A stretch of DNA of 64,000 bases from Pseudomonadota bacterium (GTDB lineage: Bacteria; Campylobacterota; Campylobacteria; Campylobacterales; Sulfurimonadaceae): positions 1 to 64,000 of the forward strand of contig JAZDQA010000014.1 in the NCBI GenBank assembly GCA_043797085.1, given 5' to 3'. This document shows, piece after piece, positions 28,206 to 52,880 of this stretch. A model generated the notes under the pieces. It saw nothing but the letters and a program-made list of their open reading frames with translations. It had not been told where the DNA came from and ran no database searches. The translations under genes and the position numbers were made by a program. Each line of letters begins with the position of its first letter. Within the stretch, counting starts at the first letter, position 1.

Positions 28206-28514
28206 TTACGCGTTGATCGCAGTGATACGAACGCGTGTGTGATCTCTACGGAAACCACGTTTTACTTTACTGTCTTTACGACGACGTTTTTTGAAAATTA
28301 CGACTTTACGGTCACGACCTTCATTGATTACTTCAGCCATAACAACAGCACCCTCTACGAATGGAGTACCAGTGCGAAGTTCGCCGCTATTAACAGCTAA
28401 AACTTCTTTGATTTCGATGGCAGTTTTAGGATCTAGTCCCATTTTATCGAACAAGAGGATATCGCCCACTTGAACTTTGTACTGTTTACCACCATTTTTA
28501 ATGATTGCGTACAT
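28206..28514 (-). CDS. rplU: 50S ribosomal protein L21
   Basis: MYAIIK.GGKQYKV, FKKRRRK; TATAAT at 28551-28556 (minus). Confidence 0.98.
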
Positions 28515-28747
28515 TAGCATTCCTTACCTATAAGTCTACAAAAGTTGCGAATTATAGCCAAACATTTTTTAAGCTTGGATTAAACAGGATTATCTAGTGA
28601 AAGAGAAAGCAATAATTTTTCCCACATTCTCTATTATTATTTAAAAACCAACTCTTTTTTAGAATCACAAGGGTATTATTTTACACTAAATTGCTCTAAA
28701 AGCCCTAAAAAATTTCCTCATCTTAATAAATTAGTGAGAGCTTAAAT

Positions 28748-29320
28748 ATGACAACACGAAGAGTACCCTTTGGCTGGAGTGAGCATCCTAAAAAAAATGC
28801 TGTATTTTTAGCTATCTATGTTGAATCGATTTCACCTTGGAAATATTTTAAGGATGATATGCAGCACATAAAATGCCCTGCCCTCATCATGATCGATCGC
28901 TGGGATGGACGAATGGGATTTCCAGGGGGGACGGTTGATGAGAATGAATCCCTTTTGGATGCCCTTGTACGTGAGGTAAAAGAGGAAATCGGTATTACGA
29001 TCAAACCCTCTCAGGTACATCCGATCGCAACGCATGAAAGCCGTATTGTCACACACTTTTATGGGTTAAAAGTTCTCGAAGCAGAATTTTTGCACATCTA
29101 CTATCATATCCTCAATAATTTTTCCCGCTCTATCCTCCTTCATGCATACGAAGAGGGAGATCAATCGCATTTTATGTCGGAGATTACAGGAATTAAGATT
29201 GTCCCGCTTATTCAGCACGAAAACAAAGGAATAGTACACTTTATGAAAAATGCCTTTGCCGGAGCAACGAAAGAGGACCTTGAAGTGCTTTTATCTGAGG
29301 TACTAAATATCCGTCTCTAA
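28748..29320 (+). CDS. Nudix hydrolase, NUDT16-like
   Basis: Complete Nudix box G-X5-E-X7-REVKEEIG preceded by DRWDGRMGFPGG. Confidence 0.85.
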   Translation: MTTRRVPFGWSEHPKKNAVFLAIYVESISPWKYFKDDMQHIKCPALIMIDRWDGRMGFPGGTVDENESLLDALVREVKEEIGITIKPSQVHPIATHESRIVTHFYGLKVLEAEFLHIYYHILNNFSRSILLHAYEEGDQSHFMSEITGIKIVPLIQHENKGIVHFMKNAFAGATKEDLEVLLSEVLNIRL

Positions 29321-29326
29321 TTTAAC

Positions 29327-29355
29327 TTGACATATTAATAATGGAGAGCTACAAT
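29327..29355 (+). promoter_or_regulatory. Sigma70 promoter of marR-RND operon
   Basis: TTGACA (29327) - 17 nt - TACAAT (29350). Confidence 0.75.
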
Positions 29356-29393: not shown

Positions 29394-29864
29394 ATGAATC
29401 GATGTGAATGCCCAGTTGATGAATCATTAGGCTGCTTAACCAATCATGCTGCTTTTGCAGCGCGTACGTTCTTAACGCGACAACTCGCACTTAACGGTAT
29501 CAATATGACCATCGAGCAGTTTAAGGTGATGGTTACATTATGGAATGAAAAAAGTGCTACGCAACAAACCATCGCCGATTTTGTTGGCAAAGATAAAGCG
29601 AGCATCACGCGGCTCATTGTAGGGTTAGAAAAACGTGCATTAATCGCTCGCACCACTGATGAACATGATAAACGATGTAACCTTGTCACTCTTACACCGC
29701 ATGGAATTGCATTGGAAAAACCTACTATGGAAACGTTAGCTGGGGCAAATGCATATATCCATAATGACATCGATCCCAACGAACTTGCTATTACTTTACG
29801 CGTCTTAAAACAGATGTGTTCTCTTTTAAATTATTCTAAAAATTCACCCAAGGAATCCAAATGA
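29394..29864 (+). CDS. MarR family transcriptional regulator
   Basis: T.EQF.V, Q..IA...DKASITR.I..LE.R.LI.R, DKR. Confidence 0.93.
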   Translation: MNRCECPVDESLGCLTNHAAFAARTFLTRQLALNGINMTIEQFKVMVTLWNEKSATQQTIADFVGKDKASITRLIVGLEKRALIARTTDEHDKRCNLVTLTPHGIALEKPTMETLAGANAYIHNDIDPNELAITLRVLKQMCSLLNYSKNSPKESK

Positions 29865-30991
29865 ACCGCTTTACCACACTAGCCCTATCCTCTGCTTTAC
29901 TGCTTGCATTAGGAGGATGTGAACGCCCAAAAGCTGCGGGAATGGAAAAACCTCCCGAAGGTCCTGTCCCCGTAACTGTCACTACGGTTGCTTCAGGAAA
30001 TTTCCCCGCAGTTCTGGAAGCAACGGGTCAAACAATGGCATTTAATACGGTTCAAATCTATGCACGCGTGAATGGGTATTTGCAAAAACGGGTTTATACA
30101 GAAGGTCAAATGGTCAGCAAAGGACAAACTCTTTTTATCATTGACCCATCGGACTTAAAAAACTCTCTTGAGAGTGCCAAAGCTGCATTTGAACTAGCCC
30201 ATGCAAACCATACCAATGCAATGGCTGTTTACAATCGAATCAAACCTCTGGCATCCGCCAATGCTGCGAGTCAACAAGATCTCGATACTGCAACGGCAAA
30301 TGAACGTAATTCTGCGGCTGCATTGATGGGAACACGAGCTGTACTGGAACAAGCCAAACTCAATCTCAGCTACAGCACGATCAAAGCGCCCATCAGCGGA
30401 TTTGTCGATAAATCCAAAATGGACGTGGGAACCTATATCGCTGCAGGTGCGAATGGGCTTTTAACCACGATGTATCAAAGTGATCCGATGTATGTCAATT
30501 TTACCTTTAGTGAAAACCAAAAAATTGCACGGCAAAATGCTCTTGCAAGCGGTAAACTCATTGCTCCAAAAAACGGACAATACGAAGTAGAACTTACACT
30601 CGCGGATGGAACGGTTGTGAATAAAAAAGGAACAATAAACTTTATTTCGCCATTTATCGATCCGACAACGGGAACCATCAGCTATCGTGCCCTCATCGAT
30701 AATCGTGACCATCTTCTCCTTCCCGGACAATTCGTTCATGTAAAAGTCAAAGGAATGGAGTGGAAAAATGCCCTTTATATCCCTCAAAAAACGCTTATGA
30801 CAGGTGAAAAAGGCAAATTTGTTTACAGTATTGAAACCAACAATACGGTTACGGCAAAACCGGTTGTTGCTACCCAATGGATCGGTGAAAATGTATTGAT
30901 CGAAAGCGGTTTAAATGTTGGGGATAAAATCGCTGCAGATGGTTTAGCCAAACTCAAACCCGGTGCCAATATTATTGCGAATGGTAAATAA
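29861..30991 (+). CDS. RND periplasmic adaptor (AcrA/CmeA-like)
   Basis: Lipobox LGGC, ARVNGY, IKAPISG, LLPGQFV. Confidence 0.93.
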   Translation: MNRFTTLALSSALLLALGGCERPKAAGMEKPPEGPVPVTVTTVASGNFPAVLEATGQTMAFNTVQIYARVNGYLQKRVYTEGQMVSKGQTLFIIDPSDLKNSLESAKAAFELAHANHTNAMAVYNRIKPLASANAASQQDLDTATANERNSAAALMGTRAVLEQAKLNLSYSTIKAPISGFVDKSKMDVGTYIAAGANGLLTTMYQSDPMYVNFTFSENQKIARQNALASGKLIAPKNGQYEVELTLADGTVVNKKGTINFISPFIDPTTGTISYRALIDNRDHLLLPGQFVHVKVKGMEWKNALYIPQKTLMTGEKGKFVYSIETNNTVTAKPVVATQWIGENVLIESGLNVGDKIAADGLAKLKPGANIIANGK

Positions 30992-30993
30992 TC

Positions 30994-33900
30994 ATGTTTA
31001 GTAAATATTTTATCGATCGTCCCGTTTTATCAGCGGTTATCGCCATGATTATCATGTTACTTGGATTTACGGCCATCAAAAGTCTGCCGATTTCACAACT
31101 GCCGAATATTACACCTCCTACGGTTGTTGTAAGCGCACAGTATCCCGGTGCGGATGCACAGACGATTGCCAATACCATTCTAACCCCACTGGAGTCTCAA
31201 ATCTCTGGTGCCGATGGGTTGATGTATATGAGTTCCAAAGCGGCTGCCCTGCCCGGAAGCGCAAGCATCACCTGTACGTTTAATATCGGGGTCAATCAAG
31301 ATTTAGCGGCTGTTGATATACAAAACCGTATCAATACCGTCATCGCACAGTTACCGCAAAGTACCCGTGATCTCGGAGTCAGTGTTCAGAAAAAAACCTC
31401 TGATATTCTTCTCATCACCGCTATCACCTCTCCGGATGCAAGTTTTACCGATACACAAATCAGTAACTATATCTCTTCCAATCTACTCGATGAGATCAAA
31501 AAAATTCCCGGTGCCGGACGAGCACAGATTTTCGGGCAACGAGATTTCGCGATGCGCATTTGGCTTAATCCTGACAAAATGGCATCTTTAGGGGTCACCA
31601 CCGCTGAAATCGCCGCTGCTATAAAAGATCAAAATCTTCAAGTTTCCCCCGGTCGTTTGGGACAAGGTCCAACAAACAACGAGCAAATGTTGACAATGCA
31701 ACTCACCTCGCAAGGGCGATTTTCAACGCCTGAAGAGTTTCAAAACATTATTATCCGCGCCAAAAATGATGGTGCAAACTTGCGTCTAAAAGATGTTGCG
31801 CGCGTAGAACTGGGAAGCCAAAACTATGAATTTTTCGGGCGCGTCAATGGCAAACCTGCTGCTATGATCGGAATTTTCGCGGACACCAATGCCAATGCAC
31901 TCGATACTTCCGCCGCCGTAGCTGCCAAAATGGAACAGCTCTCTCATAAATTTCCTAAAGGGATTGAATACTCTATTCCTTACGATACAACTGATTTTGT
32001 CAAAATATCCATTGAAGAGGTCATTTTTACTCTCCTCGCCTCTATTGTTTTGGTTAGTTTGGTTATTTACCTCTTTTTACAAAGCACGCGCGCGGCACTG
32101 ATTCCTGTCCTCTCGATTCCGATTTCACTCACCGGTGCTTTTATCGGGATGTATCTTCTAGGGTATTCGATCAATACTCTTACCCTCTTTGGTCTCGTCC
32201 TCGCCATCGGTATCGTCGTTGATGATGCCATCGTCGTTATCGAAAATATGGAGCGAATTTTACAGAGTGAAAAACTCTCACCCCGTGCTGCTGCGATCAA
32301 AGCAATGAGCCAAATCTCAGGTCCCGTTATCGCAATTGTCTTGGTTATGTGTGCCGTTTTTGTCCCTGCAACTTTTATGGGTGGGATGACGGGACAATTG
32401 TATAAACAATTTGCCGCAACGATCGCTATATCTGTTGTCTTTTCCGGCTTTATGGCGTTGACGTTTGCCCCCTCTATCGGAGCATTGATTCTCAAACATC
32501 ACGAAAAAGAGCCTGCACGCTTTTTCCGCTGGTTCAATCGCATATTTGGCAAAATGACCGAAAATTATGTACGTCGTTCAGGGTGGATGATTCGTAAATC
32601 ATTTATCTTTTTGATCATCTATCTCTCGACGTACTTTTTTATCGGTTTTTTCCATAAAACCCTTCCAACCGCTTTTTTACCGATGGAAGATCAGGGATAC
32701 TTCATTACCGCAATTGTCCTCCCTGATGGAGCTACTGCGAACCGAACCCTCGAAGTAGTCAAACAAGTCGAAGCAATTTTGGGAGAGCAAGAGGGAGTTG
32801 CCAAGTTTACCGCCATTACGGGTTTAAACATTCTCACTTTTTCACAAGAGCCAAACGCTGCGGTTATTTTTACCCGTCTCAAACCGTGGGATGAGAGAAC
32901 GACTAAAGAACTGAAGATTTTTGGCATTTTAGGCTCAATCGGACCTAAACTGGGAAGCATCAAAGAGGCAAAAGTTTTCGCGATGCCTCCACCTCCGATA
33001 CGCGGGATGGGACCTTCGGATATGTTTAGTCTGCGTATTCTTCAACCCGGAGACAACAACGTTACACGCCTTTTCGAAACGACCAATACATTTTTGAATA
33101 CATTGCGAAATGAAAAAAGCATCAAAAATCCGTTTAGTACGATGAATATCACAACCCCAACCCTCGCCATCGAGGTAAATCGTGAAAAGGCCAAAATGCT
33201 CGGTCTTTCCATTGCCGATATTTTTCAAACACTCCAAGCCTCCATCGGTACCATGTATGTCAATCAGTTTGACAAAAATGGTAAAACCTACTGGGTACAA
33301 ATGCAATCCGATGCACCCTATCGTGCAACACCCGAAGATATAGGCAGAGCGTGGGTTCGTTCTTCATCAGGAGTGATGATCCCTCTCTCAAGCGTAGTGA
33401 AAGTCACCATGTCCAGCGCGCCCTCTTCTATCGAACATTTTAACGGTGTTTTGAGTACAACCGTAATGGGTTCACCTGCGCCCGGATACAGTTCAGGTGA
33501 GATTATCAAAGTGGTCGAAAATGCAGGCGATACGCTCCTGCCCAGTTCTGCAAGTTACGATTGGGATGGTCTATATCTCCAAGAAAAATTAGTCGGTTCT
33601 AAAGCAATGATTATTATGGCATTTGCTCTTATTATGGTATATTTGATTCTTGCAGCCTTATATGAGCGCTGGACACTGCCAATATCTATTATGTTGGCGG
33701 TTCCGTATGGTATTATGGGAGCGTATGCCGTAGTATGGCTTATCCCCTTTTTGAACAACAACGTCTTTTTCCAAATCGGTCTGCTAACCCTTATAGCCCT
33801 CTCGGCAAAAAATGCAATTTTGGTCGTCGAGTTTGCCGAAGAACAGCGCCATGCAGGAAAAAATATCTACGATGCAGCGATGGAAGCGGCACGACTGCGT

Positions 33901-34128
33901 TACCGCCCCATGATGATGACGTCCTTCGCCTTTTTGGCAGGGATGCTTCCGCTGATTTTTAGTTCAGGTGCGGGTGCAGGAGGGCGTTTTTCCATCGGGA
34001 TTGCCATGTTTGGAGGGATGTTGGCCGCAACGTTTATCGAGCGGTATTTTATCCCTTATCTGTATTACTGGGTTGCCACATTTCAAGAAAAAATAGCTCC
34101 ACACAAAGAGGTCTCTGATGAAAACTAA
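30994..34128 (+). CDS. HAE1 RND efflux transporter (AcrB/CmeB-like)
   Basis: 1044 aa; FIDRPV, GIVVDDAIVV, AKNAIL.VEF, R.RP.MMTS. Confidence 0.96.
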   Translation: MFSKYFIDRPVLSAVIAMIIMLLGFTAIKSLPISQLPNITPPTVVVSAQYPGADAQTIANTILTPLESQISGADGLMYMSSKAAALPGSASITCTFNIGVNQDLAAVDIQNRINTVIAQLPQSTRDLGVSVQKKTSDILLITAITSPDASFTDTQISNYISSNLLDEIKKIPGAGRAQIFGQRDFAMRIWLNPDKMASLGVTTAEIAAAIKDQNLQVSPGRLGQGPTNNEQMLTMQLTSQGRFSTPEEFQNIIIRAKNDGANLRLKDVARVELGSQNYEFFGRVNGKPAAMIGIFADTNANALDTSAAVAAKMEQLSHKFPKGIEYSIPYDTTDFVKISIEEVIFTLLASIVLVSLVIYLFLQSTRAALIPVLSIPISLTGAFIGMYLLGYSINTLTLFGLVLAIGIVVDDAIVVIENMERILQSEKLSPRAAAIKAMSQISGPVIAIVLVMCAVFVPATFMGGMTGQLYKQFAATIAISVVFSGFMALTFAPSIGALILKHHEKEPARFFRWFNRIFGKMTENYVRRSGWMIRKSFIFLIIYLSTYFFIGFFHKTLPTAFLPMEDQGYFITAIVLPDGATANRTLEVVKQVEAILGEQEGVAKFTAITGLNILTFSQEPNAAVIFTRLKPWDERTTKELKIFGILGSIGPKLGSIKEAKVFAMPPPPIRGMGPSDMFSLRILQPGDNNVTRLFETTNTFLNTLRNEKSIKNPFSTMNITTPTLAIEVNREKAKMLGLSIADIFQTLQASIGTMYVNQFDKNGKTYWVQMQSDAPYRATPEDIGRAWVRSSSGVMIPLSSVVKVTMSSAPSSIEHFNGVLSTTVMGSPAPGYSSGEIIKVVENAGDTLLPSSASYDWDGLYLQEKLVGSKAMIIMAFALIMVYLILAALYERWTLPISIMLAVPYGIMGAYAVVWLIPFLNNNVFFQIGLLTLIALSAKNAILVVEFAEEQRHAGKNIYDAAMEAARLRYRPMMMTSFAFLAGMLPLIFSSGAGAGGRFSIGIAMFGGMLAATFIERYFIPYLYYWVATFQEKIAPHKEVSDEN

Positions 34129-35542
34129 TATCACTCTTTTCGCTTCTTGGGCACTTTTGCTAGGAGGATGCGCGATTGGTCCTGATTACCAACGACCCGC
34201 AACCGTTACTCCCGATGCCTTTCGTTACAGCGAAACCAACCAAAGTATTCCCATAAACGCCGCATGGTGGAAAAGCTTCAACGATGAGCAACTCACCAAA
34301 AATATTGACCAAGCACTCATTAACAACTTTGATCTTCTGAGTGCAGACGCTTCGGTGGAAGCAATGCTTGGAAAATTTGATACAGCTAAATCTTATCTTT
34401 ATCCCCAAATCAACGCAAATGGCTCATTAACACGTCAAGGCGTTAGCTCAACGGATACCTATCAGCTAAGAGATGGAGTCACGTCCACCTACGCAGCCAA
34501 CCTTTCCCTTACCAGCTATGAGATTGATCTTTTCGGAAGGGTTCGCCGTGCGAATGAAGCTGTACGTGCCCAATTGCTCGCCACAGAATTTTCACGCCAG
34601 ACGTTGCGTATTGCTATTAGCACAAACGTCGCGGCTTCGTATATTAGACTCTCTTCGCTAGAGTCTCAAAGCAAACTGGCGCATGAAAACATGAAAGCTT
34701 CGGAAGAGATCTATAATCTCAATGCGTTAAAATATAAGTACGGTACGATTGCACAAACCATTTTATTGCAATCGCAATCAGAACTCCAAAGCGCCAAAGC
34801 AACATTCTCTCAATTGCAAGCTTCTAAAATTGGTGAAGAAGCAACCTTCAATCTCCTCTTAAGCCGTAATCCTAGAAATGTAGCCACCACACCCCTTGAT
34901 AAAATTACTCTTCCAGCGTTGCCAACTGCCCTTCCATCAGAAATATTGCAACATCGTCCGGATATTGCTCTCGTAGAACAAAACCTCATCGCTGCCAATG
35001 CGAAAATAGGTATCGCTCGTGCAGCATATTATCCCAGTATCCAGCTAACGGGCATGGCAGGGATACAGAGTCTGGATCTGCAAAATTTTACATCGAGTCC
35101 TACAACATTATGGAAAATACTCCCTACTATATCTGTCCCTATCTTTGCCGCAGGACGAATTAAAGGAGAGATAAAAACCGCTGAAGCAGAACACAATCAA
35201 AGCCTTGCAAACTATCAAAAAGCGATTGTCAATGCCTTCAATGATGCCGATAATGCCATCGGACAAAATGCCAAAGCACAAGAACAGCTCCTCTATCAAA
35301 AAGAACGCAGCAATGCCATAAAAACGGCATTTGAACAATCAAAACTCCGTTATAACGCGGGTACTATCGCATATAACGATTTACTCATCATTCAACAACA
35401 ATGGATTAACGCACAGCAAAGTTATTTGCTCGCGAAACAAAACACATTGATTTCAACCGTTAATTTATACAAAGCATTTGGGGGAGGATGGGACAACAAC
35501 CAAAATATCCCTATCCCGAATATGTTGCCTGCTGGACGTTAA
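34118..35542 (+). CDS. Outer-membrane factor lipoprotein (NodT/OprM/CmeC-like)
   Basis: LGGC lipobox, GPDY.RP, YEIDLFG, RPDI..E, LYKA.GGGW. Confidence 0.94.
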   Translation: MKTNITLFASWALLLGGCAIGPDYQRPATVTPDAFRYSETNQSIPINAAWWKSFNDEQLTKNIDQALINNFDLLSADASVEAMLGKFDTAKSYLYPQINANGSLTRQGVSSTDTYQLRDGVTSTYAANLSLTSYEIDLFGRVRRANEAVRAQLLATEFSRQTLRIAISTNVAASYIRLSSLESQSKLAHENMKASEEIYNLNALKYKYGTIAQTILLQSQSELQSAKATFSQLQASKIGEEATFNLLLSRNPRNVATTPLDKITLPALPTALPSEILQHRPDIALVEQNLIAANAKIGIARAAYYPSIQLTGMAGIQSLDLQNFTSSPTTLWKILPTISVPIFAAGRIKGEIKTAEAEHNQSLANYQKAIVNAFNDADNAIGQNAKAQEQLLYQKERSNAIKTAFEQSKLRYNAGTIAYNDLLIIQQQWINAQQSYLLAKQNTLISTVNLYKAFGGGWDNNQNIPIPNMLPAGR

Positions 35543-40772: not shown

Positions 40773-41993
40773 ATGATGAAAAAAGAGGTTAAAAAAGTCG
40801 TACTCGCATATTCAGGCGGTTTGGATACCAGCGTTATCCTCAAATGGCTTCAAGATGAATATCAATGTGAAGTTGTCACCTTTACTGCTGATATTGGGCA
40901 AGGTGAAGAGGTAGAACCGGCTCGTGCAAAAGCAATTAGCCTTGGTATCAAACCGGAAAACATCTACATCGAAGATCTCCGTGAAGAATTTGTCCGTGAT
41001 TACGTCTTCCCAATGTTTCGTGCCAACGCTATTTATGAGGGTGAATACCTTCTTGGAACATCCATCGCACGTCCGCTTATTGCCAAGCGTCAAGCAGAAA
41101 TTGCTCGCATTACCGGAGCCGATGCCGTCAGTCACGGCGCAACCGGAAAAGGAAATGACCAAGTCCGTTTTGAAATGGGCTATTTGGGACAAAACAGTGC
41201 CTTAACCATCATTGCTCCATGGCGCGAATGGGACCTTAATTCACGAGAAAAACTCCTAGCCTATGCAGCAGAGCATGGCATTAAAATTGAAATGAGCGGA
41301 ACCAAATCTCCGTATTCAATGGATGCGAATCTCTTGCATATTTCATATGAAGGGGGAATCCTCGAAGATCCTGCATCAGAGCCTGAAGAGAGTATGTGGC
41401 GCTGGACAAGTTCCCCTGAAAATGCTCCGGATGAAGCGGAATATATTGAACTAGGGTACGAAAAAGGTGATCCAATCAGCCTAAATGGCAAATCTCTTTC
41501 TCCTGCTGTGATGTTAGAACAGCTCAACATTATCGCAGGTCGTCATGGAATCGGACGCGCGGACATCGTCGAAAACCGTTTTGTCGGGATGAAAAGTCGC
41601 GGATGTTATGAAACACCTGGCGGAACCGTGATGCTCAAAGCGCACCGTGCTATCGAATCATTAACCCTAGATCGTGAAGAAGCGCACCTAAAAGACGAGC
41701 TTATGCCTCGTTATGCAAAACTTATTTATAATGGTTTTTGGTTTGCTCCGGAGCGTGAAATGCTGCAAGCTGCTATCGATAAAACACAGCAAAACGTTCG
41801 CGGTACCGTTCGATTGAAACTCTATAAAGGTAATATTATGGTTGTCGGACGCAGCTCTGACATCTCTCTCTTTAACCCTGAATACTGCACCTTTGAAGAA
41901 GATTCTGTTTATGATCAAAAAGATGCCGGCGGTTTCATAAAACTCAATGCATTACGCTTCATTATTGCCGGTAAAGCACGAAAAAATAAATAA
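40773..41993 (+). CDS. argG: Argininosuccinate synthase
   Basis: [30 protein letters not shown]. Confidence 0.98.
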
Positions 41994-42005
41994 AGGATAA
42001 AAGAG

Positions 42006-42746
42006 ATGAGTATTATCAAAATAGACATGAATTCTCCTGAATTTCAGGCTGAACTTGAAAAAACAATTAAATTTACAGATAAAGTTGTCAATCAATTTAA
42101 CTGGGTTTATAATCCTCATTCTGAGATTAACGAGGGAGTCCAAATGGGACTTGCTCGTAATAAAATGATGTATAACAAACGATTTTGCCCATGCTATATG
42201 GTTGAAGAAGTTGATGGTGTTTACAAAAGCAGCGATAACAGACTCTGTCCATGTACACCTGCTATTGAAAAAGAGATTCCCCAAGAGGGAGTCTGCCACT
42301 GTCAAATTTTCTGTACGCCGGAATATGCGGCATCTTTAATGAAATCAGAAGAGATTGAAACCATTACCCATCAACATTCACGCGGTCTTACAACCGAAGA
42401 ATGCGAATTTTTACTTCAAAAAAGAAACATCGATGCAGATGAATTAACTTCTCTCTTCGAAGCACGTGAGCTTGGAATGGTTAGTTTTAAAATGGTCGAT
42501 GTACGTGAATGGATGGAATGGAAATCTGGTCGCATTGAAGGGGCTGATGTCCTAATCCCAACCAGCAGTTTTTTTCAAACGCTTAATGAAGCTGAACTCA
42601 AAAATAATGAGAACATTATTGTCTACTGTCACGTTGGCAGCCGAAGTGCTCACTGTCAACGCATCCTAACCGATATGGGCTTTACAAAAGTCTCCAACCT
42701 CGCACATGGAATTGTTGGTTATAACGGCAAAATCATTCGCGGCTAA
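42006..42746 (+). CDS. Ferredoxin:thioredoxin reductase catalytic domain fused to a rhodanese domain
   Basis: CPC...CPC...CHC in the N-terminal half; VDVRE..EW..G.I.GA and YCHVGSRS in the C-terminal half. Confidence 0.85.
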
Positions 42747-42759
42747 TTCAAGGAGTGTC

Positions 42760-43209
42760 ATGAAAGTATTATTAACTAAAGATGTTAAAGGTGTTGGAAA
42801 AACAGGTGAAATTAAAGAAGTAGCAGACGGTTACGGTAAGAATTTTCTTATCGGAAAAGGTCTTGCACTTCTTGCAACTCACGAAGTATTAAAAAAATAC
42901 GAGTCCGATCAGCGTAAAAAAACAGCCCATGAAGCTGCTGAAATTGAACGCTTAAATGCTATCAAAGCAACGCTGGCAGAGATAAAAGTAGTTATCAAGA
43001 AAAAACTTGGCGATACGGGACATCTTTTTGGTTCCGTCACTAAAGATGAAATTGCTCAGGCATTACATGATCAATACGCTATCGAGATCGATAAAAAAGA
43101 ACTGGATGCAAAACACGGCATTAAAACCGTTGGATTACATGACTTAGACCTTAAACTTGGGCATGGAATTCACGCGACATTGCATCTTGAAATCCAAGGT
43201 CTCTCGTGA
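42760..43209 (+). CDS. rplI: 50S ribosomal protein L9
   Basis: MKVLL.KDV..GK.GE..EV.DGY..NFL, LFGSVT; SD AAGGAG. Confidence 0.96.
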
Positions 43210-44084
43210 ACAAAGCAGGATTTGTCGCCCTGATAGGACGACCCAATGCTGGTAAAAGTACCATGATGAACTGGATTCTAGGGGAAAAAATTGCTCTAGT
43301 AAGCCAAAAAGCCAATGCTACACGTAAGCGTTCGAATGCTATCGTTATGCACAATGACGATCAAATTATTTTTGTGGATACACCAGGGCTTCATCAAGCT
43401 GAAAAACTTCTCAATCAATACATGCTTGAAGAAGCACTCAAAGCCATTGGGGATTGTGATATAGTTGTTTACTTAGCTCCTGCATCGGATAAAACCAGTT
43501 ATTATGAAAAGTTTTTAGAAATCAATGGAGATAAGCGTAAGCATATTATCGTTTTGAGTAAAATTGATCAAATATCTCAAGCTGATTTACTTAAAAAAAT
43601 TGGCGAATATAATCAATATAGCGATAAATTTGAAGCACTCATACCAATGTCTGTGACTAAAAATGTGGGTAAAAATGACTTACTAAATACGATCGTCAAA
43701 TATTTAGATGAATCTCCCTATCTCTATGATCCTGAGAATATTACCACCGAAATGATACGTACAATCTATAAAGAATTCATTCGTGAAGCCATTTTTGATA
43801 ACATTAGCGACGAAATTCCCTACGAATCTGACGTTTTAATTGACAAGATTGATGAAGATTCCCCAACAGAACATATTCGAGCGACCATTATTGTCGAAAA
43901 AGAATCTCAAAAAGGGATTATTATTGGTAAAGGAGGTGTTGCCATTAAGCGCATCGGGAAAAATGCCCGTGAGAAAATTGAACGTCTTTCCTCTAAACCC
44001 GTTTACCTCGAACTTTTTGTATCGGTTAAAAAAGGGTGGACAACCGACAAAAAATTCTTAAGTGATTTAGGATATGAATGGTAA
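43206..44084 (+). CDS. era: GTPase Era
   Basis: [15 protein letters not shown] motif IIGKGG; GTG start overlaps the rplI stop. Confidence 0.96.
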
Positions 44085-45049
44085 AAAAACTTTTATTACT
44101 TCCCCTTTTCATAAACTCTCTTGTTGCAGGGGAGGTAATGGATCTTTATCGCAGCGGAGGAATGAATGCTATTGCCAAAGAGATCGACCACGGACTTGGT
44201 GATTCAAGTTTTTGGCATTCAAAAATTTCAAATAAAGATCTCAAATTTGGCTATTATGAAGCCACAGATACCCTGCTTGTATGCGAAAAAGATCAACCAA
44301 GTTTAAGTTTATATCGTAAAGAAAATAAAGGGAAACAAGAACGCTTTGCCCTTTTAAAAACCATTCCGGCATTTACAGGAAAATATGATGGAGATAAACT
44401 AAGCGCCGGAGATCGCCGTACCCCTATTGGAATTTATTCTCTGACCCAAAAGCTATCCACCGTAGACCCTTTTTATGGACCAATGGCATTTGTCACATCT
44501 TATCCCAATTTATATGATCGTATTCGAGGAAAAAGCGGCGACGGTATTTGGATACATGGGCAACCGGCCTCCGGTGATCGAGATAATTTTACAAAAGGGT
44601 GTATTGTTATTGATAACAATGAATTAAGCAATCTTGATCAAAAAATTGATTATAAAAACACACTTCTAGTTATTGATACCAAACCTAAAGAAAATTTAAA
44701 CGTCCCCTACGCAACAATCATCGCGCAGCTCTACCAATGGCGATATGCATGGAAATATAATGATTTTCAGACCTATCTCTCTTTTTACGACACTACTTTT
44801 ATCCGTCATGACGGAATGGAATATTACGATTTTAAAAATTATAAACAGCGTATTTTTGACAAAAAAGAGTTAAAAGAGATTCTTCTCTCCAATCTCAATA
44901 TTATCCCTTATCCAGGTGACCGACAAAATCTTTTTATGGTCACGTTTGATGAAATTTATACCAGCAACAATTATACGTTCAGCGGACCAAAAACTTTAAT
45001 GCTCCTCCTTAACACCGATAAATCTATTTCTATTCTTTCTGAGCTTTAA
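44078..45049 (+). CDS. L,D-transpeptidase-fold peptidoglycan carboxypeptidase (Csd6/Pgp2-like)
   Basis: GD.RTP.G.Y, YPN.YD, GIWIHG...TKGC, C-terminal NTF2-like W..AW domain. Confidence 0.88.
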   Translation: MVKKLLLLPLFINSLVAGEVMDLYRSGGMNAIAKEIDHGLGDSSFWHSKISNKDLKFGYYEATDTLLVCEKDQPSLSLYRKENKGKQERFALLKTIPAFTGKYDGDKLSAGDRRTPIGIYSLTQKLSTVDPFYGPMAFVTSYPNLYDRIRGKSGDGIWIHGQPASGDRDNFTKGCIVIDNNELSNLDQKIDYKNTLLVIDTKPKENLNVPYATIIAQLYQWRYAWKYNDFQTYLSFYDTTFIRHDGMEYYDFKNYKQRIFDKKELKEILLSNLNIIPYPGDRQNLFMVTFDEIYTSNNYTFSGPKTLMLLLNTDKSISILSEL

Positions 45050-45050
45050 T

Positions 45051-46349
45051 ATGAAAATAATCGTATTTCTTCTTTTTGTAACATTTTCATACGCTCTTCC
45101 TTTTTCATTTATAAAACACGAAACATCCAAAAATGACGGACCGACATTATTAGTTATAGGCGGTATTCATGGAAATGAGCCGGGAAGTTATTTTGCCGCT
45201 TCCATCCTTTCTCAATACTACACTATTAGTAAAGGAAATCTTTGGATTGTACCTAATCTAAATGCTCTTAGCATTGCAATGAACAGTCGTGGTATTCATG
45301 GGGATATGAATCGAAAATTTGCCGATATCAATGCAACCGATCCTGATATTAAAATCGTTAAAGAGATCCAAAAAATCATAACGGATCCCAAAGTCGATCT
45401 TATTTTAAATTTACACGATGGTCATGGTTTTTATCGAAAGGAATATCAAAATACTATTTTTAATCCTAGTGCATGGGGGCAAACGTGTGTTATAGATCAA
45501 GAAGCACTCGATGGAGATCACCCGTATAAAAATTTAGACAAAATTGCGTTAGCCGTTCAGCAAGAAGTCAATGACGGTCTCATCGAAAACCATCACTGTT
45601 TTGCCATACGTAACACTAACACCCGTTTTGATGATGAAGCGATGAAGCACTCTCTCACTTTTTTTGCTATTAATCAAAATAAACCGGCATTTGCCATCGA
45701 AACCAGTAAAAACCTTCCTACCCTCAATGAAAAAGTCTTTTATCAATTACGCGCAATTGAGGGTTATATGCGTTATATGGGGATTGAATATACGCGATCT
45801 TTCGATTTAAGCAGTGAAAATCTTAAAAGTATCCTAAAATATGATGGAAATGTTACAATTAATAACACAACAGCACTGAATTTTGAAAACTTAAGAAATG
45901 AATTAAGTTTCATTCCGTTACAATCAGAGAGTAATGAATTTAAATTTTCCCATCCGTTGGGATTTGTAGTACAAAAAAGTAATAAGTATGATCTTTATAT
46001 TGGGAATAGAAAGACAAGTTCACTAACACCAAGTTTCCATGAAACAAGTATGCATGATGAAAATGTTACAATTGAAGTTGATAACAATCAAAGAATCATC
46101 ACTTTTGCTACAGAATTTTTAGTAACTGCCGATTTTAAGGTTATACTTCATAATAAAGATATTCGAGTGAATATAATTGGTTATTCACCTAAAAAAGGGA
46201 CGGATGAAGCTAACATGCGTGTTAGCATGAAAGATTTAGATCCTAAATATTCACTCGATCGAGACCATCAGGTTTATCGAGTTGAGTTTTATAGAGGCAA
46301 CCGTTTTTGTGGGATGATTCTCGCACATTTTAAACAGGACACGAAATGA
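45051..46349 (+). CDS. M14/M99 D,L-carboxypeptidase (Csd4/Pgp1-like)
   Basis: GIHGNEPG, DMNRKF, LHDG.G, AIETSK. Confidence 0.88.
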   Translation: MKIIVFLLFVTFSYALPFSFIKHETSKNDGPTLLVIGGIHGNEPGSYFAASILSQYYTISKGNLWIVPNLNALSIAMNSRGIHGDMNRKFADINATDPDIKIVKEIQKIITDPKVDLILNLHDGHGFYRKEYQNTIFNPSAWGQTCVIDQEALDGDHPYKNLDKIALAVQQEVNDGLIENHHCFAIRNTNTRFDDEAMKHSLTFFAINQNKPAFAIETSKNLPTLNEKVFYQLRAIEGYMRYMGIEYTRSFDLSSENLKSILKYDGNVTINNTTALNFENLRNELSFIPLQSESNEFKFSHPLGFVVQKSNKYDLYIGNRKTSSLTPSFHETSMHDENVTIEVDNNQRIITFATEFLVTADFKVILHNKDIRVNIIGYSPKKGTDEANMRVSMKDLDPKYSLDRDHQVYRVEFYRGNRFCGMILAHFKQDTK

Positions 46350-47893
46350 GCATACAAAATACATTTTCCACCATCCTATCTGCCAACCCATACCGAAAAG
46401 ATTTTTATCTTAGTACGCTTAATAGCATCACGGATATAGCATCACCTTCCTTTTCAAAAGAGCAGTATGCTATTTCTTTTTTAAATACAAAAAGTTTTAT
46501 CTCAGCACTTGTCGGGATAAGTAAAAATGTCCCCGATGATGACATATATGATGCTTTAGAAAATAAGGTCTACGAAGAGCTTGCTTTGGATATGGCAGTA
46601 GAATATCAAATTCAATACGTTGAAGCTCTCAATCGTATTAGTGAAAATGAAAGATTTTTTCATGTTTTCGTGGTTGATCCTCTTTTATTAGAACAAGAGT
46701 TTGCACCCATTATTGATGCCATAAAGTACATTGATCAAATTGTACCAGTGGCATTATTGCTTAAATCTTTATATGTTAAAGATTTTATTGAATCCAATGG
46801 TGCTCACGGATTTATCTATTTTCAAGAAAATGATGCTTTTTTTGCTGTTTACAATGAACAAGAATTTATTTATACAAAATCACTAAAATACTCCCTTAAA
46901 CAAATGCATGAACGTTTTTGTGAATTACTGGGCGAACCGATTGATCTAATTACTTTTCAAAATATTCTTGCATCTCAAGGATTTAATGCCAATAATCCTG
47001 AATATCAAAAGAATTTTCTCAAACTTTTTGGCGAAATTTTTCTTCATATTAATGATGTCATTACCTACTCAAAACGAGCTTTCGAAATAAAACAATTTGA
47101 ATCAATTTATATTGGGGCATCTGTAGGCTATATCAGCGGCTTAGATGAATATGCCCAAACCTATCTTGGTCTAAAAGCACACCCATTTGACTTTGATTTT
47201 GGATTCAACACAGGGGAAAAGAATGTTGATCAAATTCATCAACTTATGCATTTGTATGCCCGACTTGAATCAAATGAGCGCTATGAGTGTAATTTTACCA
47301 TTTTTCACAGACCTCCCCCATTTGCAAAACGTGATAGTGGAAAACTTATCCTTGTTACAGCAGCAGCATTAGCTATAGCACTCTTTTACCCTGGAACGTA
47401 TTGGGGACTTTCTTATGTTGAAGAATTTCATTATGCACTTATGAGTCAAGAATACGAACAAGTACATATTGATAAGACAACACGTGAAGCTACCGTAAAT
47501 CTCAAACTTGCCACTAAGAATACAGCTCAAGGTCATCTTGATGAGCAAAAGAGTTCTTATAAACAAAAACAAGACACTCTGATCCAAGTTCATGATAAAA
47601 AAGTAAATTATCCCATGAAAGCAAAAATTGTTGCTGACTTTTCCCGTAGTTTTAATCAATATAGGGTTAAATTAAATTCATTGGGATACACTGAGACAAC
47701 CAATGAAGAAAACAATATTTCAAGTAAATTTTTTAGCTTTATGCTTACGGCTAAAAATACACAAGATATTACGGCTCTGCTAAAACATTTAACTGCAACC
47801 AAAAAAGATACCTATGATTTTGATTTAAAATTAATCTCGTATGATGGTAATAATACAGGCTACCTCAGTGAACTCAAGGCGGTACTCAAATGA
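46346..47893 (+). CDS. PilM/PilN-like (GspL-like) assembly protein
   Basis: Large cytoplasmic region, one TM near residue 335, coiled coil; first gene of the filament cluster (inferred from topology and position). Confidence 0.55.
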   Translation: MSIQNTFSTILSANPYRKDFYLSTLNSITDIASPSFSKEQYAISFLNTKSFISALVGISKNVPDDDIYDALENKVYEELALDMAVEYQIQYVEALNRISENERFFHVFVVDPLLLEQEFAPIIDAIKYIDQIVPVALLLKSLYVKDFIESNGAHGFIYFQENDAFFAVYNEQEFIYTKSLKYSLKQMHERFCELLGEPIDLITFQNILASQGFNANNPEYQKNFLKLFGEIFLHINDVITYSKRAFEIKQFESIYIGASVGYISGLDEYAQTYLGLKAHPFDFDFGFNTGEKNVDQIHQLMHLYARLESNERYECNFTIFHRPPPFAKRDSGKLILVTAAALAIALFYPGTYWGLSYVEEFHYALMSQEYEQVHIDKTTREATVNLKLATKNTAQGHLDEQKSSYKQKQDTLIQVHDKKVNYPMKAKIVADFSRSFNQYRVKLNSLGYTETTNEENNISSKFFSFMLTAKNTQDITALLKHLTATKKDTYDFDLKLISYDGNNTGYLSELKAVLK

Positions 47894-48525
47894 CATTAAA
47901 TATCGAAAATTATCTTTACAATCTTGATCGTACCCTTTCACTGAAAAGTGATCGTGACAAAATGATGCTTTTTGGAATGATTTTTGCCGGTCTTTTTACT
48001 TTTTCTTATCTTTTATTTTGGGAAAGTGCAGAGGCAGATTTTAAAGCATCACATGAAAAAGCAGTTGCTATGGAAAGTGATTTAAATAACGATAAGCAGT
48101 ATTTAGAGAGCAATCCGCCTGAGCGTATTACCCAAATTGAGCAAGAGACAAAAGCCATTGAATTAGAATATCAACACTATATTCAATATAATACTTACAT
48201 CAAAGACAGATTAGAACAAATTTCTTCACTCTATTATGACGAAGTTATTTGGGGAGCTTATTTAGATTCTATTTCTAAATATGCAAAAGCCCATAATGTT
48301 AAATTAACTCGATTTGGTAATACTCTGACTACTGACAACGGTTCTTTTGGGCACGTTTTGGATATTTCTATTTCTACTGATGCACCATTCAAAAATACAC
48401 TCAAGTTTATCAATGCACTCGAACAGAGTACTCTTGTTGTTGATTTACATGATTTAAATATGACAGCGGATAAAAAACTAAAAAGTGAGCTTAATATTTC
48501 AGTATGGGGGATTGTACGACAATGA
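47890..48525 (+). CDS. PilO/GspM-like protein
   Basis: N-terminal TM, coiled coil, F.N.L.FI..LE motif; position. Confidence 0.65.
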   Translation: MTLNIENYLYNLDRTLSLKSDRDKMMLFGMIFAGLFTFSYLLFWESAEADFKASHEKAVAMESDLNNDKQYLESNPPERITQIEQETKAIELEYQHYIQYNTYIKDRLEQISSLYYDEVIWGAYLDSISKYAKAHNVKLTRFGNTLTTDNGSFGHVLDISISTDAPFKNTLKFINALEQSTLVVDLHDLNMTADKKLKSELNISVWGIVRQ

Positions 48526-49049
48526 AGACTTTTGCATTAATGCCCCTCATTATTTCTATAACACTGTGTGCCAATAATGATATTAACTCGCCAATGGTAC
48601 TGCCAAATACTGAAAATGTAACAGTTTTGCAACCACAAAATGACAAAGAATTACTTTGGGTAGATGAACAAATCAAAGCAATTGTCCCTTCTCGCGTTGG
48701 AATTTCCGATGGCTTTATAAATTCTCTCCATGATCCTATCAAGTATATAACTCCTGTTCGCCTACCTGGTATTAGCAATGGGTCAACACTTCTTGCCCCA
48801 CCAAAATTGGGAAGTATGTCACTTCTTCCTACTATACCAAAAGTCCTAGTAGAACCATTACGATTGCAGGCCCTTATGAATAAGTCAGCCCTTATCAATG
48901 GCAAATGGTACAAACTAAACGATACGGTACGAAGCTACAGCTTAATTGAAATAAAGCAGAACTCCGTCTTATTAAGTGGTGGAAAAAATCAGCCTTTGAT
49001 TTTATTCCTTCGTAAATCCAATAACAACATCACCATAAATACAAAATAG
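48522..49049 (+). CDS. Exported PilP/MshK-like cluster protein
   Basis: L.LQALMNK.ALING.W...D.V motif; precedes the secretin; start at MKTFAL. Confidence 0.55.
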   Translation: MKTFALMPLIISITLCANNDINSPMVLPNTENVTVLQPQNDKELLWVDEQIKAIVPSRVGISDGFINSLHDPIKYITPVRLPGISNGSTLLAPPKLGSMSLLPTIPKVLVEPLRLQALMNKSALINGKWYKLNDTVRSYSLIEIKQNSVLLSGGKNQPLILFLRKSNNNITINTK

Positions 49050-49058
49050 GATAGCAAC

Positions 49059-50801: not shown

Positions 50802-50804
50802 CGG

Positions 50805-51614
50805 ATGGAACATTCGCTGTTTATAAAGCCAAAAGAGCTATTTATAGATATAGTTAATCCTCGTGACTATGTTCAAATCGACAGCGTTTCACATATGTAT
50901 CAAAATTTAAAATCTTCAGTGCAAAAGCCACTTAAAATGATTTTACTTTATGGAAGACCCGGAACCGGTAAAAGCATGTTATTGCACAAACTTCATCATG
51001 ACCTTTCAAAACATCAGAAAGTTTTTATGGTGGACATACCTATTATTGATGAAAGTGATTTTTTACGTGTTCTTGCTCAAAAAATTTATGGATATGTAAA
51101 CAGAGAAGCAATTACTCTTACCACTTTCTTAGAACTTGCAAGTGCGATTAACTATCCGCAAACTCCTATTGTTTTACTTGACGAAGCACAACTCTACAGT
51201 TCTGCTTTAATGGAAAAAATTCGACTTATTTCTGATGCACGAGCATTAAAATTTGTTATTACCCTTCATAAAACGGATGATGAGGACATTATTGCTAAAG
51301 AACATTTTCAAACACGTATCTGGGAGAGCATTGAGCTACAAAATGCTTCACCTGAAGAACTTAAAATTTATATTCAAAAAAAATTGCTTAAATCAAATTG
51401 CTTTGACGTCGCCAACATGATAAATGATAAAAATATTAAAATAATTAGTAAACTAACCAAAGGTAATTATCGTGATGCCAACAAACTCATGTTCTCTCTC
51501 TTTTCTCTTTATGCATGGTTTGAAGAGCATCAGCCCAGTAAAATAAATTATACTTCACTTAGACCAAAATACATAGAAATGGCTGCCATTCACACAGGTC
51601 TTATACGTGCTTAA
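50805..51614 (+). CDS. ExeA/MshM/CtsP-like ATPase
   Basis: GRPGTGKS, LLDEAQ, T.GN.R..NKL. Confidence 0.82.
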   Translation: MEHSLFIKPKELFIDIVNPRDYVQIDSVSHMYQNLKSSVQKPLKMILLYGRPGTGKSMLLHKLHHDLSKHQKVFMVDIPIIDESDFLRVLAQKIYGYVNREAITLTTFLELASAINYPQTPIVLLDEAQLYSSALMEKIRLISDARALKFVITLHKTDDEDIIAKEHFQTRIWESIELQNASPEELKIYIQKKLLKSNCFDVANMINDKNIKIISKLTKGNYRDANKLMFSLFSLYAWFEEHQPSKINYTSLRPKYIEMAAIHTGLIRA

Positions 51615-52329
51615 TATACCTTCACTAGAACGCCGATGGCTTAAATACAAACTAAAACAATCTCTTCCCTACATAGCATTCGCTATCACGGCTTTAATTC
51701 TATGCGTCACTATCATTATAATTTTAAAGGCAGATACTGCGATTTCTACACAGAGTGTCAAAGAACTGGCTACCATAAAAACACCCCCTATTTATGAATC
51801 TCCTATGCTTCTTGAGCCTTCTATGCAGTTTGTACAATCGCTTCCAGCTCCAGTACCGGATACTGTACCGTCAAATCCTATAAAAATCATCCCTGAGATA
51901 GTCGCACCAAAAAAATCAGTATCCAAAATCCCAATATCTCAGACTAAGCCGCTGCTAGCATCACCGTCCATAATACCGATAGTCGTTGCTTCAGCCAAAA
52001 AAACTTCTACGATTAATCGAGATACAGCAGCCTTTGATATTCATGAAATCGAGGAGCGTTTTCAAAACAATTCTAATCCTCATCTAGGACTTTACATCGC
52101 GCGCTACCATTATGATCACGGTAATTACAATGAAGCTTATAATTACTCTTTAAAAACCAACGCGATTAACAATACCATTGAAGAAAGTTGGTTAATCTTT
52201 GCAAAATCAATGGCAAAACTTGGAAAAACTGACCAAGCTAAAAAAACTCTTCAGCTTTATATTTCACAATCAAATTCTGATGCTGCGAAAAGCTTACTGG
52301 ATTCATTGGATAAAGGCGGGTCTAAATGA
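51607..52329 (+). CDS. Membrane-anchored TPR protein (CtsX/MshN-like)
   Basis: N-terminal TM, Pro-rich linker, C-terminal TPR (E.SW.IFAK...KLG...A...L). Confidence 0.6.
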   Translation: MLNIPSLERRWLKYKLKQSLPYIAFAITALILCVTIIIILKADTAISTQSVKELATIKTPPIYESPMLLEPSMQFVQSLPAPVPDTVPSNPIKIIPEIVAPKKSVSKIPISQTKPLLASPSIIPIVVASAKKTSTINRDTAAFDIHEIEERFQNNSNPHLGLYIARYHYDHGNYNEAYNYSLKTNAINNTIEESWLIFAKSMAKLGKTDQAKKTLQLYISQSNSDAAKSLLDSLDKGGSK

Positions 52330-52868: not shown

Positions 52869-52880
52869 GGAATAAATTAT

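Follow-up and report, generated by a model that had tools for sequence, protein, structure and literature searches.

A Nudt16-like (PF22327) Nudix hydrolase encoded in a Campylobacterota genome and its predicted function

A true member of the Nudt16-like family (PF22327) is encoded in a stretch of 64,000 nucleotides (referred to as the window) from the genome of a sulfur-oxidizing member of the Sulfurimonadaceae (phylum Campylobacterota; assembly GCA_043797085.1, contig JAZDQA010000014.1, positions 1 to 64,000). The likeness of this protein (P0001, referred to as the window protein) to human NUDT16 extends beyond the Nudix box. Its chemistry is predicted to be that of the human enzyme, and clearance of inosine diphosphate (IDP) and deoxyinosine diphosphate (dIDP) is the tentatively favored physiological role.

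Family membership and fold

The gene and its signature motif are as follows.

28748..29320, + strand: Nudt16-like (PF22327) Nudix hydrolase gene (P0001, 190 residues), from the open reading frame (ORF), Pfam, PDB sequence matches, the AlphaFold2 (AF2) model and fold matches
28928..28996, + strand: canonical Nudix box (residues 61-83, with Arg75, Glu76, Glu79 and Glu80), read from the translation

The ORF has an ATG start, a TAA stop and no internal stop codon, and the Nudix box reads G61-x5-E67-x7-R75-E76-x2-E79-E80-x-G82. The best Pfam match is PF22327 (70.8 bits at E 1.7e-19, with the cut-off at 27 bits), which covers residues 45-180 and model positions 24-153 of 161. The generic Pfam NUDIX model matches more weakly (E 3.4e-12) and only at residues 51-119. 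NCBIfam yielded 22 matches, none of them above cut-off (best 33 bits against a cut-off of 245), be it the MutT, RppH, NudC, NudE or NudF equivalog. When 177,635 PDB sequences were searched, the top 10 of 21 matches were NUDT16 or Xenopus X29 (E 4e-10 to 1e-8); other Nudix families matched around the box only (E 1e-4 or worse).

A sequence-only reading of this DNA had claimed an intact Nudix box and four blocks that are colinear with human NUDT16 up to the C-terminus. HMMER alignment with the human chain 5wji (residues 44-172) confirms this. The four blocks (residues 50-61, 99-105, 144-154 and 161-178) align in order, and the human counterparts given there are right. The assignment as NUDT16-type, not MutT/RppH/NudC, also holds. 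Neither placement in an ordinary bacterial Nudix clade nor a likeness confined to the box was found in the profile, fold and box-removed tests. With the box removed, residues 84-190 align to each of five eukaryote-type members with a score that none of 500 shuffles reaches; against the RppH and the ADPRase-like Nudix protein of the same genome, used as controls, they are at shuffle level. The five members were recruited with the window protein as query, which favors them, and three of them are classed as eukaryote-type by sequence and tree only; the profile tests leave them out of the training rows. A C-terminal profile trained without them (45 rows) gives the five members 39-61 bits, and all 13 ordinary Nudix proteins listed (of 15 given) score below 0 bits. 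A family profile, again without the five rows, finds NUDT16 at E 1e-25, TIRR at E 1e-17 and other Nudix proteins at 5e-11 or worse.

The AF2 model has a predicted local distance difference test score (pLDDT) of 95.2; its 130-row input alignment contained the five eukaryote-type rows. Foldseek places NUDT16 at the top (E 7.6e-13, template modeling (TM) score 0.71-0.75), with the first other Nudix protein at E 4e-7 and a TM score of 0.42. Down to rank 37, every row listed is NUDT16, X29 or TIRR. In an exhaustive fold comparison with 48,161 chains, X29 comes first (Z 19.6, root-mean-square deviation 2.3 Å, 170 aligned residues), and the next chain has Z 14.0.

Active site, base pocket and predicted dimer

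Residue roles in NUDT16 were taken from PMC4485890 and PMC6459841; for these and all other papers, statements refer to the portions of text that were available. The corresponding features of the window protein are:

28898..28930, + strand: family motif Arg51-x-Asp53 ... Phe58-Pro-Gly60-Gly61 (human Arg50, Asp52, Phe57, Gly59), from the 5wji alignment
29180..29182, + strand: Glu145 (human Glu136, third metal-site acid), after His141 (human His133), from the 5wji alignment
28805..28807, + strand: Phe20, where human NUDT16 has His24 (purine stacking), mapped via the eukaryote-type member P0213, not the human chain directly
29249..29281, + strand: C-terminal base-reading segment (residues 168-178) with Ala173 (human Ser166) and Asp177 (human Gln170), from the 5wji alignment
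29087..29155, + strand: lengthened helix (residues 114-136), which exceeds its NUDT16 counterpart by about 15 residues and is predicted to lie in the dimer interface, from conservation, the AF2 model and the dimer prediction

Conservation was assessed in 122 close homologs and in a 130-row family alignment. The latter goes back to a search of 1.84 billion cluster representatives, which gave 563 matches at E 0.001 (88 at 1e-10). The best 150 of these, mostly at 27-45% identity, were listed. The alignment consists of the window protein, 6 close homologs and 123 of the 150 listed matches, while 27 were left out (fragments, shorter forms, long fusions and two repeat artefacts, P0129 and P0133, which lack PF22327 and were dropped). 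Six of 20 cluster members that were looked up have a name or taxon, including the protist Pelomyxa, a sea anemone and a Dojkabacteria metagenome-assembled genome.

All phosphate and metal ligands of NUDT16 (Arg50, Asp52, Gly59, Glu76, Glu80 and Glu136) have equivalents in the window protein (R51, D53, G60, E76, E80 and E145), and Phe57, Glu79 and His133 are likewise retained (F58, E79 and H141). These residues are invariant in the 122 close homologs, except for H141 (121 of 122), and block 51-60 as a whole is 99.6% conserved. Glu76, Glu79, Glu80 and Glu145 occur in all 130 family rows.

The animal-type base pocket (His24, Ser166 as hydrogen-bond donor, Gln170) was not found in the window protein, which has Phe20, Ala173 and Asp177 instead. 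Position 20 is Phe in all 122 close homologs and in 122 of the 130 family rows (His in 7, Tyr in 1). Position 177 is Asp (101) or Glu (21) in the close homologs; in the family rows, it is Glu in 91, Gln in 23 and Asp in 10. Because of these counts across the 130 rows, Phe20 and a carboxylate at position 177 are taken as the non-animal state. Position 173 is more variable (Ala 73, Ser 47, Thr 2 among the 122), and human Phe61 is replaced by Thr62, which is invariant (122/122). Judged from these residues, the window protein would fall outside the animal NUDT16 ortholog group, but it may still work in a similar way. Gln170 of NUDT16 takes a hydrogen bond from N1 of inosine and also contacts the adenine amine of ADP-ribose (PMC4485890, PMC6459841), so that Asp177 fits either substrate.

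The lengthened helix is the most conserved of the regions compared (99.2% for residues 114-136 among the 122 homologs; the whole protein reaches 84% and residues 51-82 reach 90%). The AF2 model places it at residues 111-133. In a two-copy prediction, the score was 0.76, compared to 0.00 for the best control; the runs share at least 84% of their contacts, with a pLDDT of at least 83. The mark applied to this score was calibrated on solved structures, where 20 of 30 pairs and 1 of 23 monomers attain it. The predicted interface (residues 28-34, 50-55, 112-137 and 143-169) resembles that of human NUDT16 (33-36, 50-56 and 120-162; PMC6459841). One face of the long helix is predicted to pack on its mate (contacts 122-122', 119-126' and 115-129'), and strand 147-153 to pair with the mate strand. 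A homodimer like that of NUDT16 is thus predicted, in the sense of likeness rather than of binding; as a like dimer has been solved, the pass may reflect memory.

Distribution, genomic context and relatives

Occurrence in Campylobacterota. The gene is present in a single copy in this genome. The nearest named proteins (98-99% identity) are labeled Sulfuricurvum, and several close relatives are automatically named 'U8 snoRNA-decapping enzyme' by JGI. Of 24 other genomes of the genus, 15 gave full-length matches. A larger draw from the family gave matches at E 1e-20 in 75 of 200 genomes, including 35 of 45 from the same genus and 21 of 95 from another genus. In a sample of 401 genomes from the phylum, 12 had a match above the PF22327 cut-off, 11 of them full length, across three families; none of 14 control genomes did. 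The gene had been called sporadic, which is not supported at the level of the genus (35/45, with 75/200 in the family), though in the phylum only 11/401 genomes have a full-length match. A scan of 185,579 GTDB genomes gave 197 pattern matches and 122 relatives; it used an exact pattern, so variants are missed. Of the 122 relatives, 80 were listed, all at least 68% identical to the window protein; 78 of these carry a taxon in the title, in all cases Campylobacterota (Sulfuricurvum, Sulfurimonas, Sulfurospirillum, Arcobacter).

Gene neighborhood. As stated in the earlier reading, rplU (28206-28520, - strand) lies on one side and an efflux operon ahead on the other (window 29394-35542, + strand: marR and genes for a membrane-fusion protein (MFP), an AcrB-type RND protein and an outer-membrane efflux protein (OEP), an ordinary efflux operon). 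Any operon or functional link with these genes was rejected. The flanking by rplU and marR is shared in only 2 of 80 GTDB loci, both 99% identical, and in 1 of 15 other full-length relative loci. In addition, marR has a promoter-like site of its own:

29327..29355, + strand: sigma-70-like promoter with 11 of 12 consensus bases, a boundary marker outside the gene, from a pattern match

This site, between the stop codon and marR, is a pattern match only; three sites were found, compared to 3.4 expected in shuffles at this loose threshold. It suggests that the marR-efflux operon is transcribed on its own. The commonest neighbor cluster (33 of 80 loci) is a mixed PAS/GGDEF/response-regulator set, which also occurs in 25% of random windows of this genome. 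The other recurrent neighbors represent genus-level synteny: an ABC transporter (25 loci), DUF3108 (16), an aldo-keto reductase (12) and a glutamyl-tRNA-synthetase-like gene (12, named by eye).

The codon usage of the gene (57th percentile) and its GC content at third codon positions (65th percentile) are ordinary among 1301 long ORFs of this genome. Horizontal acquisition had been considered possible in the earlier reading. A recent import was rejected on this composition, while an old transfer from a phage-type pool is plausible. The gene appears to be a long-resident, stand-alone accessory gene that has changed position. Elsewhere in the window, positions 41001-56000 have a GC content of 33-37% in most 1-kb bins and a flattened GC skew, unlike the core genes near this gene; this is possibly an accessory or acquired region.

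Phage members. Matches were found in 78 of 50,697 phage records, 60 of them over 80% of the length. Nine IMG/VR loci have a family member, seven of them on contigs above 200 kb. PHROG 9999 matches residues 3-183 of the window protein (E 6.9e-25). The two best BFVD structures are viral (best predicted viral structure with a TM score of 0.81), and, in the ESM Atlas, a cluster with 85% viral members has a rank between those of the Campylobacterota and the arthropod clusters. In four of six annotated phage regions (121Q, RaK2, BF, fHe-Yen9-04), the gene follows directly after a sirtuin gene, in three of these downstream of NamPRT. In phage BF (NC_041917.1, L059:3501-5891), the Nudt16-like Nudix domain (PF22327, E 1.2e-14) is fused to cREC, with a 2H gene nearby; the member from phage CBB is also a cREC fusion. 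The BF gene annotated as 'RNA ligase' codes for a 2H protein that scores with anti-CBASS Acb1 (PF23474, E 3.6e-15), and a NadM-like gene and NamPRT lie upstream. No sirtuin-, cREC- or 2H-type neighbors were seen in the Aeh1 and LAh_9 regions. The Aeh1 (L060:1543-2094) and RaK2 (L061:4995-5549) genes, labeled nudE by similarity to T4, belong to the Nudt16-like family, and the label may be a mis-transfer; the T4 NudE.1 clade hydrolyzes FAD, Ap3A and ADP-ribose. In the viral locus L055, whose family member is the closest viral relative to be confirmed, a gene of the CCA/poly(A)-polymerase type is two genes away and a phosphoesterase gene is also present. Another viral member (L056) lies inside an array of 11 tRNA genes, and on a 235 kb IMG/VR contig a gene with a WGR-PARP catalytic domain is three genes upstream of the Nudt16-like gene (L057:2071-3723). 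A 290 kb IMG/VR contig with a Nudt16-like gene codes for a tRNA with a CTA (amber-reading) anticodon, found by ARAGORN (L146:399-473), possibly a recoding or suppressor tRNA.

Phylogeny. Trees were computed with FastTree (161 rows) and with an IQ-TREE mixture model (48 rows, hand-picked after the first tree); both are unrooted. They agree that the Campylobacterota proteins form one group (support 97/96) with P0134 as sister, and that these join P0135, P0130 and P0132 (98/96), the last being from IMG/VR contigs of 236 and 395 kb. All of these share the lengthened helix. Since helix columns 122-136 were left out of the tree, the helix is independent support for this grouping. P0134 (L148:4061-4783) lacks the Nudix-box arginine, has a longer helix insert and adjoins bioD; it has no close match among 401 genomes searched. 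That it is a phage protein was rejected, its contig, with clpA-clpS-bioD and ilvI (69% to this genome), looking like a Campylobacterota chromosome. IMG/VR scans with P0128 and P0130 gave no matches.

The five eukaryote-type rows cluster on their own (99/88), amid unlabeled rows; in the best tree, the window protein falls with a jumbo-phage protein and apart from the animal proteins. They include a protein from the archamoeba Pelomyxa schiedti (P0267, KAH3766765.1), which groups with the animal proteins, so that the eukaryotic branch is not animal-only. When used as query for further protist members, it returned only itself. Direct capture from an animal is favored by neither tree; a forced clade of bacteria and eukaryotes is 24 log units worse and is not rejected (approximately unbiased (AU) test, p 0.136). 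As the tree is unrooted and its end branches are long, no donor is shown.

It is tempting to speculate that NUDT16 is one twig of an old radiation of purine-diphosphate hydrolases from prokaryotes and jumbo phages, used in nucleotide conflict. Phage copies would destroy dIDP/IDP or ADP-ribose derivatives and thereby blunt nucleotide-based immunity, the Campylobacterota would have kept a phage-type copy with the dimer helix, and eukaryotes would have drawn on the same pool. dIDP is an intermediate to the dITP signal of Kongming (bioRxiv 10.1101/2024.12.20.629578), and ITP is the product of Cad1 and RADAR (PMC11645235). As a whole, we regard this scenario as unlikely. If true, it would imply a new class of anti-defense enzymes and a prokaryotic origin of a human decapping/sanitizing enzyme.

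Predicted function and comparison with known systems

Very probably, the chemistry and the orientation of the bound substrate are as in human NUDT16. The window protein would then be a Nudt16-like housekeeping enzyme, long resident and stand-alone, that works as a metal-dependent homodimer. Glu76, Glu80 and Glu145 would bind two or more divalent ions, Arg51 would hold the alpha-phosphate, and Phe20 would stack on the purine. With the purine nucleoside buried in the trench and the far end of the substrate exposed to solvent, the diphosphate bond would be cut and the purine monophosphate released, as by NUDT16. The day-to-day job would be to clear deaminated purine diphosphates (IDP, dIDP and perhaps xanthosine diphosphate) alongside the HAM1/RdgB inosine triphosphatase (ITPase), with a side activity on other purine-diphosphate-X compounds. 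We assign a probability of roughly 0.4 to this role, IDP/dIDP clearance by a dimeric purine-diphosphate hydrolase, the choice of substrate being its weakest part. The earlier reading had proposed decapping, inosine-sanitizing or anti-ADP-ribosylation activity; the NUDT16-type family behind this proposal stands, and inosine sanitizing is only tentatively put first among the three activities.

IDP/dIDP is favored because IDP is the best substrate of the human enzyme, the loop that reads O6 is preserved, one family member is fused to HAM1, and the genome has separate genes for RppH, an ADPRase-like Nudix protein and HAM1. The Michaelis constant (Km) of human NUDT16 is 0.066 uM for IDP (PMC4485890), compared to 837 uM for ADP-ribose (PMC6459841). 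NUDT16 reads O6 via the main-chain amide of Phe57 and N1-H via Gln170 (PMC4485890); here, Phe58 is retained and position 177 has an acceptor side chain (Asp/Glu in 122/122). F61S in the human enzyme lowers activity on free ADP-ribose (PMC6459841), and Thr62 at this position was counted for IDP. The fusion, P0187 (391 residues, metagenomic), joins HAM1/ITPase (PF01725, E 4.5e-33) to a Nudt16-like domain (PF22327, E 9.3e-23) and would put ITPA and NUDT16 activities in one chain. It echoes an ITPA and NUDT16 pairing (a title in the reference list of PMC11645235). P0187 is a singleton from contigs of up to 14 kb. Its recurrence is not established, as the search for longer forms spanned 421-2000 residues, and an IMG/VR scan with P0187 gave no match. 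That search returned one unrelated fusion, P0278 (652 residues, with a C-terminal Nudt16-like domain and an N-terminal region that has no family assignment); P0176 combines a Nudt16-like domain with ankyrin repeats. The genes for RppH (above the NCBIfam cut-off) and the ADPRase-like Nudix protein are elsewhere in the genome. The hosts respire nitrate and may face deaminating stress. The gene for the ADPRase-like Nudix protein (L020:1471-2837) is directly upstream of that for a CobB-like sirtuin, which has an N-terminal extension of about 80 residues outside the model coverage.

Several points weigh against this role. Catalytic activity is a prediction. In the ADP-ribose complex, the adenine amine is likewise bound by Gln170 and Ser166 (PMC6459841); therefore, Asp177 does not discriminate between inosine and adenine. 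The three residues His24, Ser166 and Gln170, highly conserved in animal NUDT16 (PMC4485890), are all changed here. The HAM1 fusion is one sequence, elsewhere in the tree, and the named phage members mostly point elsewhere (sirtuin, cREC, 2H, NadM/NamPRT and tRNA neighbors). As 390 of the 401 Campylobacterota genomes lack a full-length match, the enzyme is not a core sanitizer, and NDK together with RdgB could clear IDP without it. No conserved functional partner gene emerged across the 80 bacterial neighborhoods. Among contigs from sequencing runs (three RNA runs and one probably-DNA run), one RNA-run contig covers 29142-29579 with zero mismatches; in the other two RNA runs, coverage of the gene is essentially absent, so that transcription is neither shown nor excluded.

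Alternatively, the enzyme may mainly process ADP-ribose derivatives, either ADP-ribose attached to proteins or nucleic acids, or ADP-ribose-phosphates from RNA repair and sirtuins. The bacterial gene would then be a domesticated phage NAD/RNA-repair enzyme or a guard against ADP-ribosylating toxins or phage transferases. NUDT16 leaves the distal ribose exposed and can hence trim conjugates, and F61S improves the processing of poly-ADP-ribosylated protein (PMC6459841), which matches the invariant Thr62. The sirtuin and cREC associations of the phage members and the WGR-PARP gene of L057 point the same way, and Iyer et al. 2022 (PMC9503650) predict that the sirtuin neighborhood clears ADPr>P in RNA repair. 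By phage neighborhoods and Thr62, ADP-ribose conjugates are better supported than the other readings. However, the four sirtuin-linked phages are one related jumbo-phage group on one branch, far from the Campylobacterota clade, and Aeh1 and LAh_9 lack such neighbors. Among the 45 commonest neighbor clusters of the 80 bacterial loci, none was conspicuous as a sirtuin, macrodomain or transferase cluster (judged from sequence starts, with no family scan), and the genome has a separate ADPRase-like Nudix gene beside its sirtuin. Given also the human Km of about 0.8 mM for free ADP-ribose (PMC6459841), we consider this function somewhat unlikely.

A function at RNA 5' ends is rather unlikely. The enzyme would remove FAD, dpCoA, NAD or NpnN caps and start decay in parallel to RppH, and RNA could bind in a trench shaped by the extra helix. 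Animal NUDT16 proteins share the decapping activity (PMC2566886), a structure of NUDT16 with FAD is available (6x7u, by its title), and the open trench suits RNA (PMC4485890). The polymerase-type neighbor of L055 with its phosphoesterase and the tRNA array around L056 would fit as well. However, RppH is already present in this genome, the predicted dimer contact largely explains the conserved helix, and no RNA-decay neighbors were seen among the 45 commonest clusters of the 80 bacterial loci. To our knowledge, bacteria have neither 7-methylguanosine (m7G) caps nor U8 snoRNA.

Quite improbable is an action on guanine signaling nucleotides (GDP, ppGpp, Gp4G), where a carboxylate at the Gln170 position could read the N1/N2 edge of guanine. 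Carboxylates do read guanine, and ppGpp is cut by some Nudix enzymes. An acidic residue (Glu or Asp) occupies position 177 in 101 of the 130 family rows and in all 122 close homologs, human NUDT16 hydrolyzes GDP (Km 0.33 uM; PMC4485890), and PhoH genes follow the jumbo-phage copies (121Q, RaK2, BF and fHe-Yen9-04). Unchecked GDP hydrolysis would, however, be costly, and the signaling genes in the vicinity of 33 of the 80 loci, to be read against the 25% of random windows in this genome, are of mixed kinds and come from related genomes. A non-catalytic binder, kept for protein or RNA interaction via the conserved helix as in TIRR/syndesmos, is very improbable: TIRR is an inactive NUDT16 paralog (PMC2566886), conservation is higher in the helix (99%) than in the region of the Nudix box (90%), and the divergent sister P0134 lacks the box arginine, but all catalytic acids and both arginines are invariant in 122/122 homologs, and the family profile scores NUDT16 well above TIRR.

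As to the literature, NUDT16 orthologs were reported in 57 animals in PMC2566886, where 'phage' and 'prokaryot' do not occur in the available text. PF22327 was described as 'likely ... limited to this kingdom', i.e., animals (PMC12210691, 2025), and the snoRNA-decapping clade was placed among those from a single domain of life (PMC5389931). Full-text searches, with most subscription papers outside their coverage, gave no paper on a bacterial or phage NUDT16 homolog and no assayed member; the available portions of PMC13464706 (NARP3) and PMC13733733 (ADP deaminase) do not describe a prokaryotic homolog. Such proteins are already labeled automatically by Pfam, JGI and UniProt pipelines, the context of the window copy is not telling, and its function is predicted. 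These points temper what follows. Since the family also has members in jumbo phages, the protist Pelomyxa and a conserved clade of Campylobacterota, the origin of NUDT16, so far treated as metazoan, is reopened. The small, simple members could settle whether IDP clearance, decapping or ADP-ribose trimming is the ancestral activity.

The phage sirtuin-2H-Nudix-cREC cluster of BF was predicted by Iyer et al. 2022 to be an NAD-dependent RNA-repair system (PMC9503650; the string NUDT does not occur in the available main text). Its Nudix gene, here re-identified as NUDT16-like, is from the same family as the window gene, which makes a direct test of counter-defense possible. Unlike in that system, itself a prediction, no partner gene adjoins the window gene, and the window protein has a single domain of 190 residues. 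More generally, the phage Nudt16-like proteins (121Q gp477, RaK2, Serratia BF gp113, CBB, Aeh1 'nudE', Lahexavirus) share with the window protein the match to PHROG 9999 and an aromatic residue (Phe in the window protein) at position 20; they have Glu at position 177, where the window protein has Asp177. They differ in that identity is only 24-40%, that most have no long helix, and that many belong to NAD-salvage/sirtuin/cREC or tRNA clusters; the bacterial gene, by contrast, stands alone on the chromosome.

With MutT, RppH, NudC, NudE/NudF and NudI, the window protein shares the Nudix box and the core fold (Z 11-14). Unlike these ordinary bacterial families, it scores far below the NCBIfam cut-offs, and the genome's own RppH and ADPRase-like Nudix proteins are at chance beyond the box. 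With human NUDT16 and Xenopus X29 (2XSQ, 3COU, 5W6X, 1U20), it shares the fold over 170 residues (about 25% identity in structural alignments), the Arg-x-Asp motif, the Phe-Pro-Gly-Gly loop, equivalents of Glu76, Glu79, Glu80, Glu136 and His133, and a predicted dimer via the same strand and loops. It differs from them by the exchanges His24 to Phe, Phe61 to Thr, Ser166 to Ala and Gln170 to Asp and by a helix before Glu145 that is about 15 residues longer. Its box is canonical (GX5EX7RE), in contrast to the lengthened box of NUDT16 (GX5DX8REX2EEXG; PMC5389931); the sea-anemone member P0213 aligns free of gaps in the box, so that the lengthened form is not universal in animals. It is prokaryotic, has no U8 snoRNA or m7G substrate and is on a separate branch in the best tree. 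Judging from its sequence, the window protein would thus represent a distinct, helix-bearing variant in an uncharacterized prokaryotic/phage branch of PF22327.

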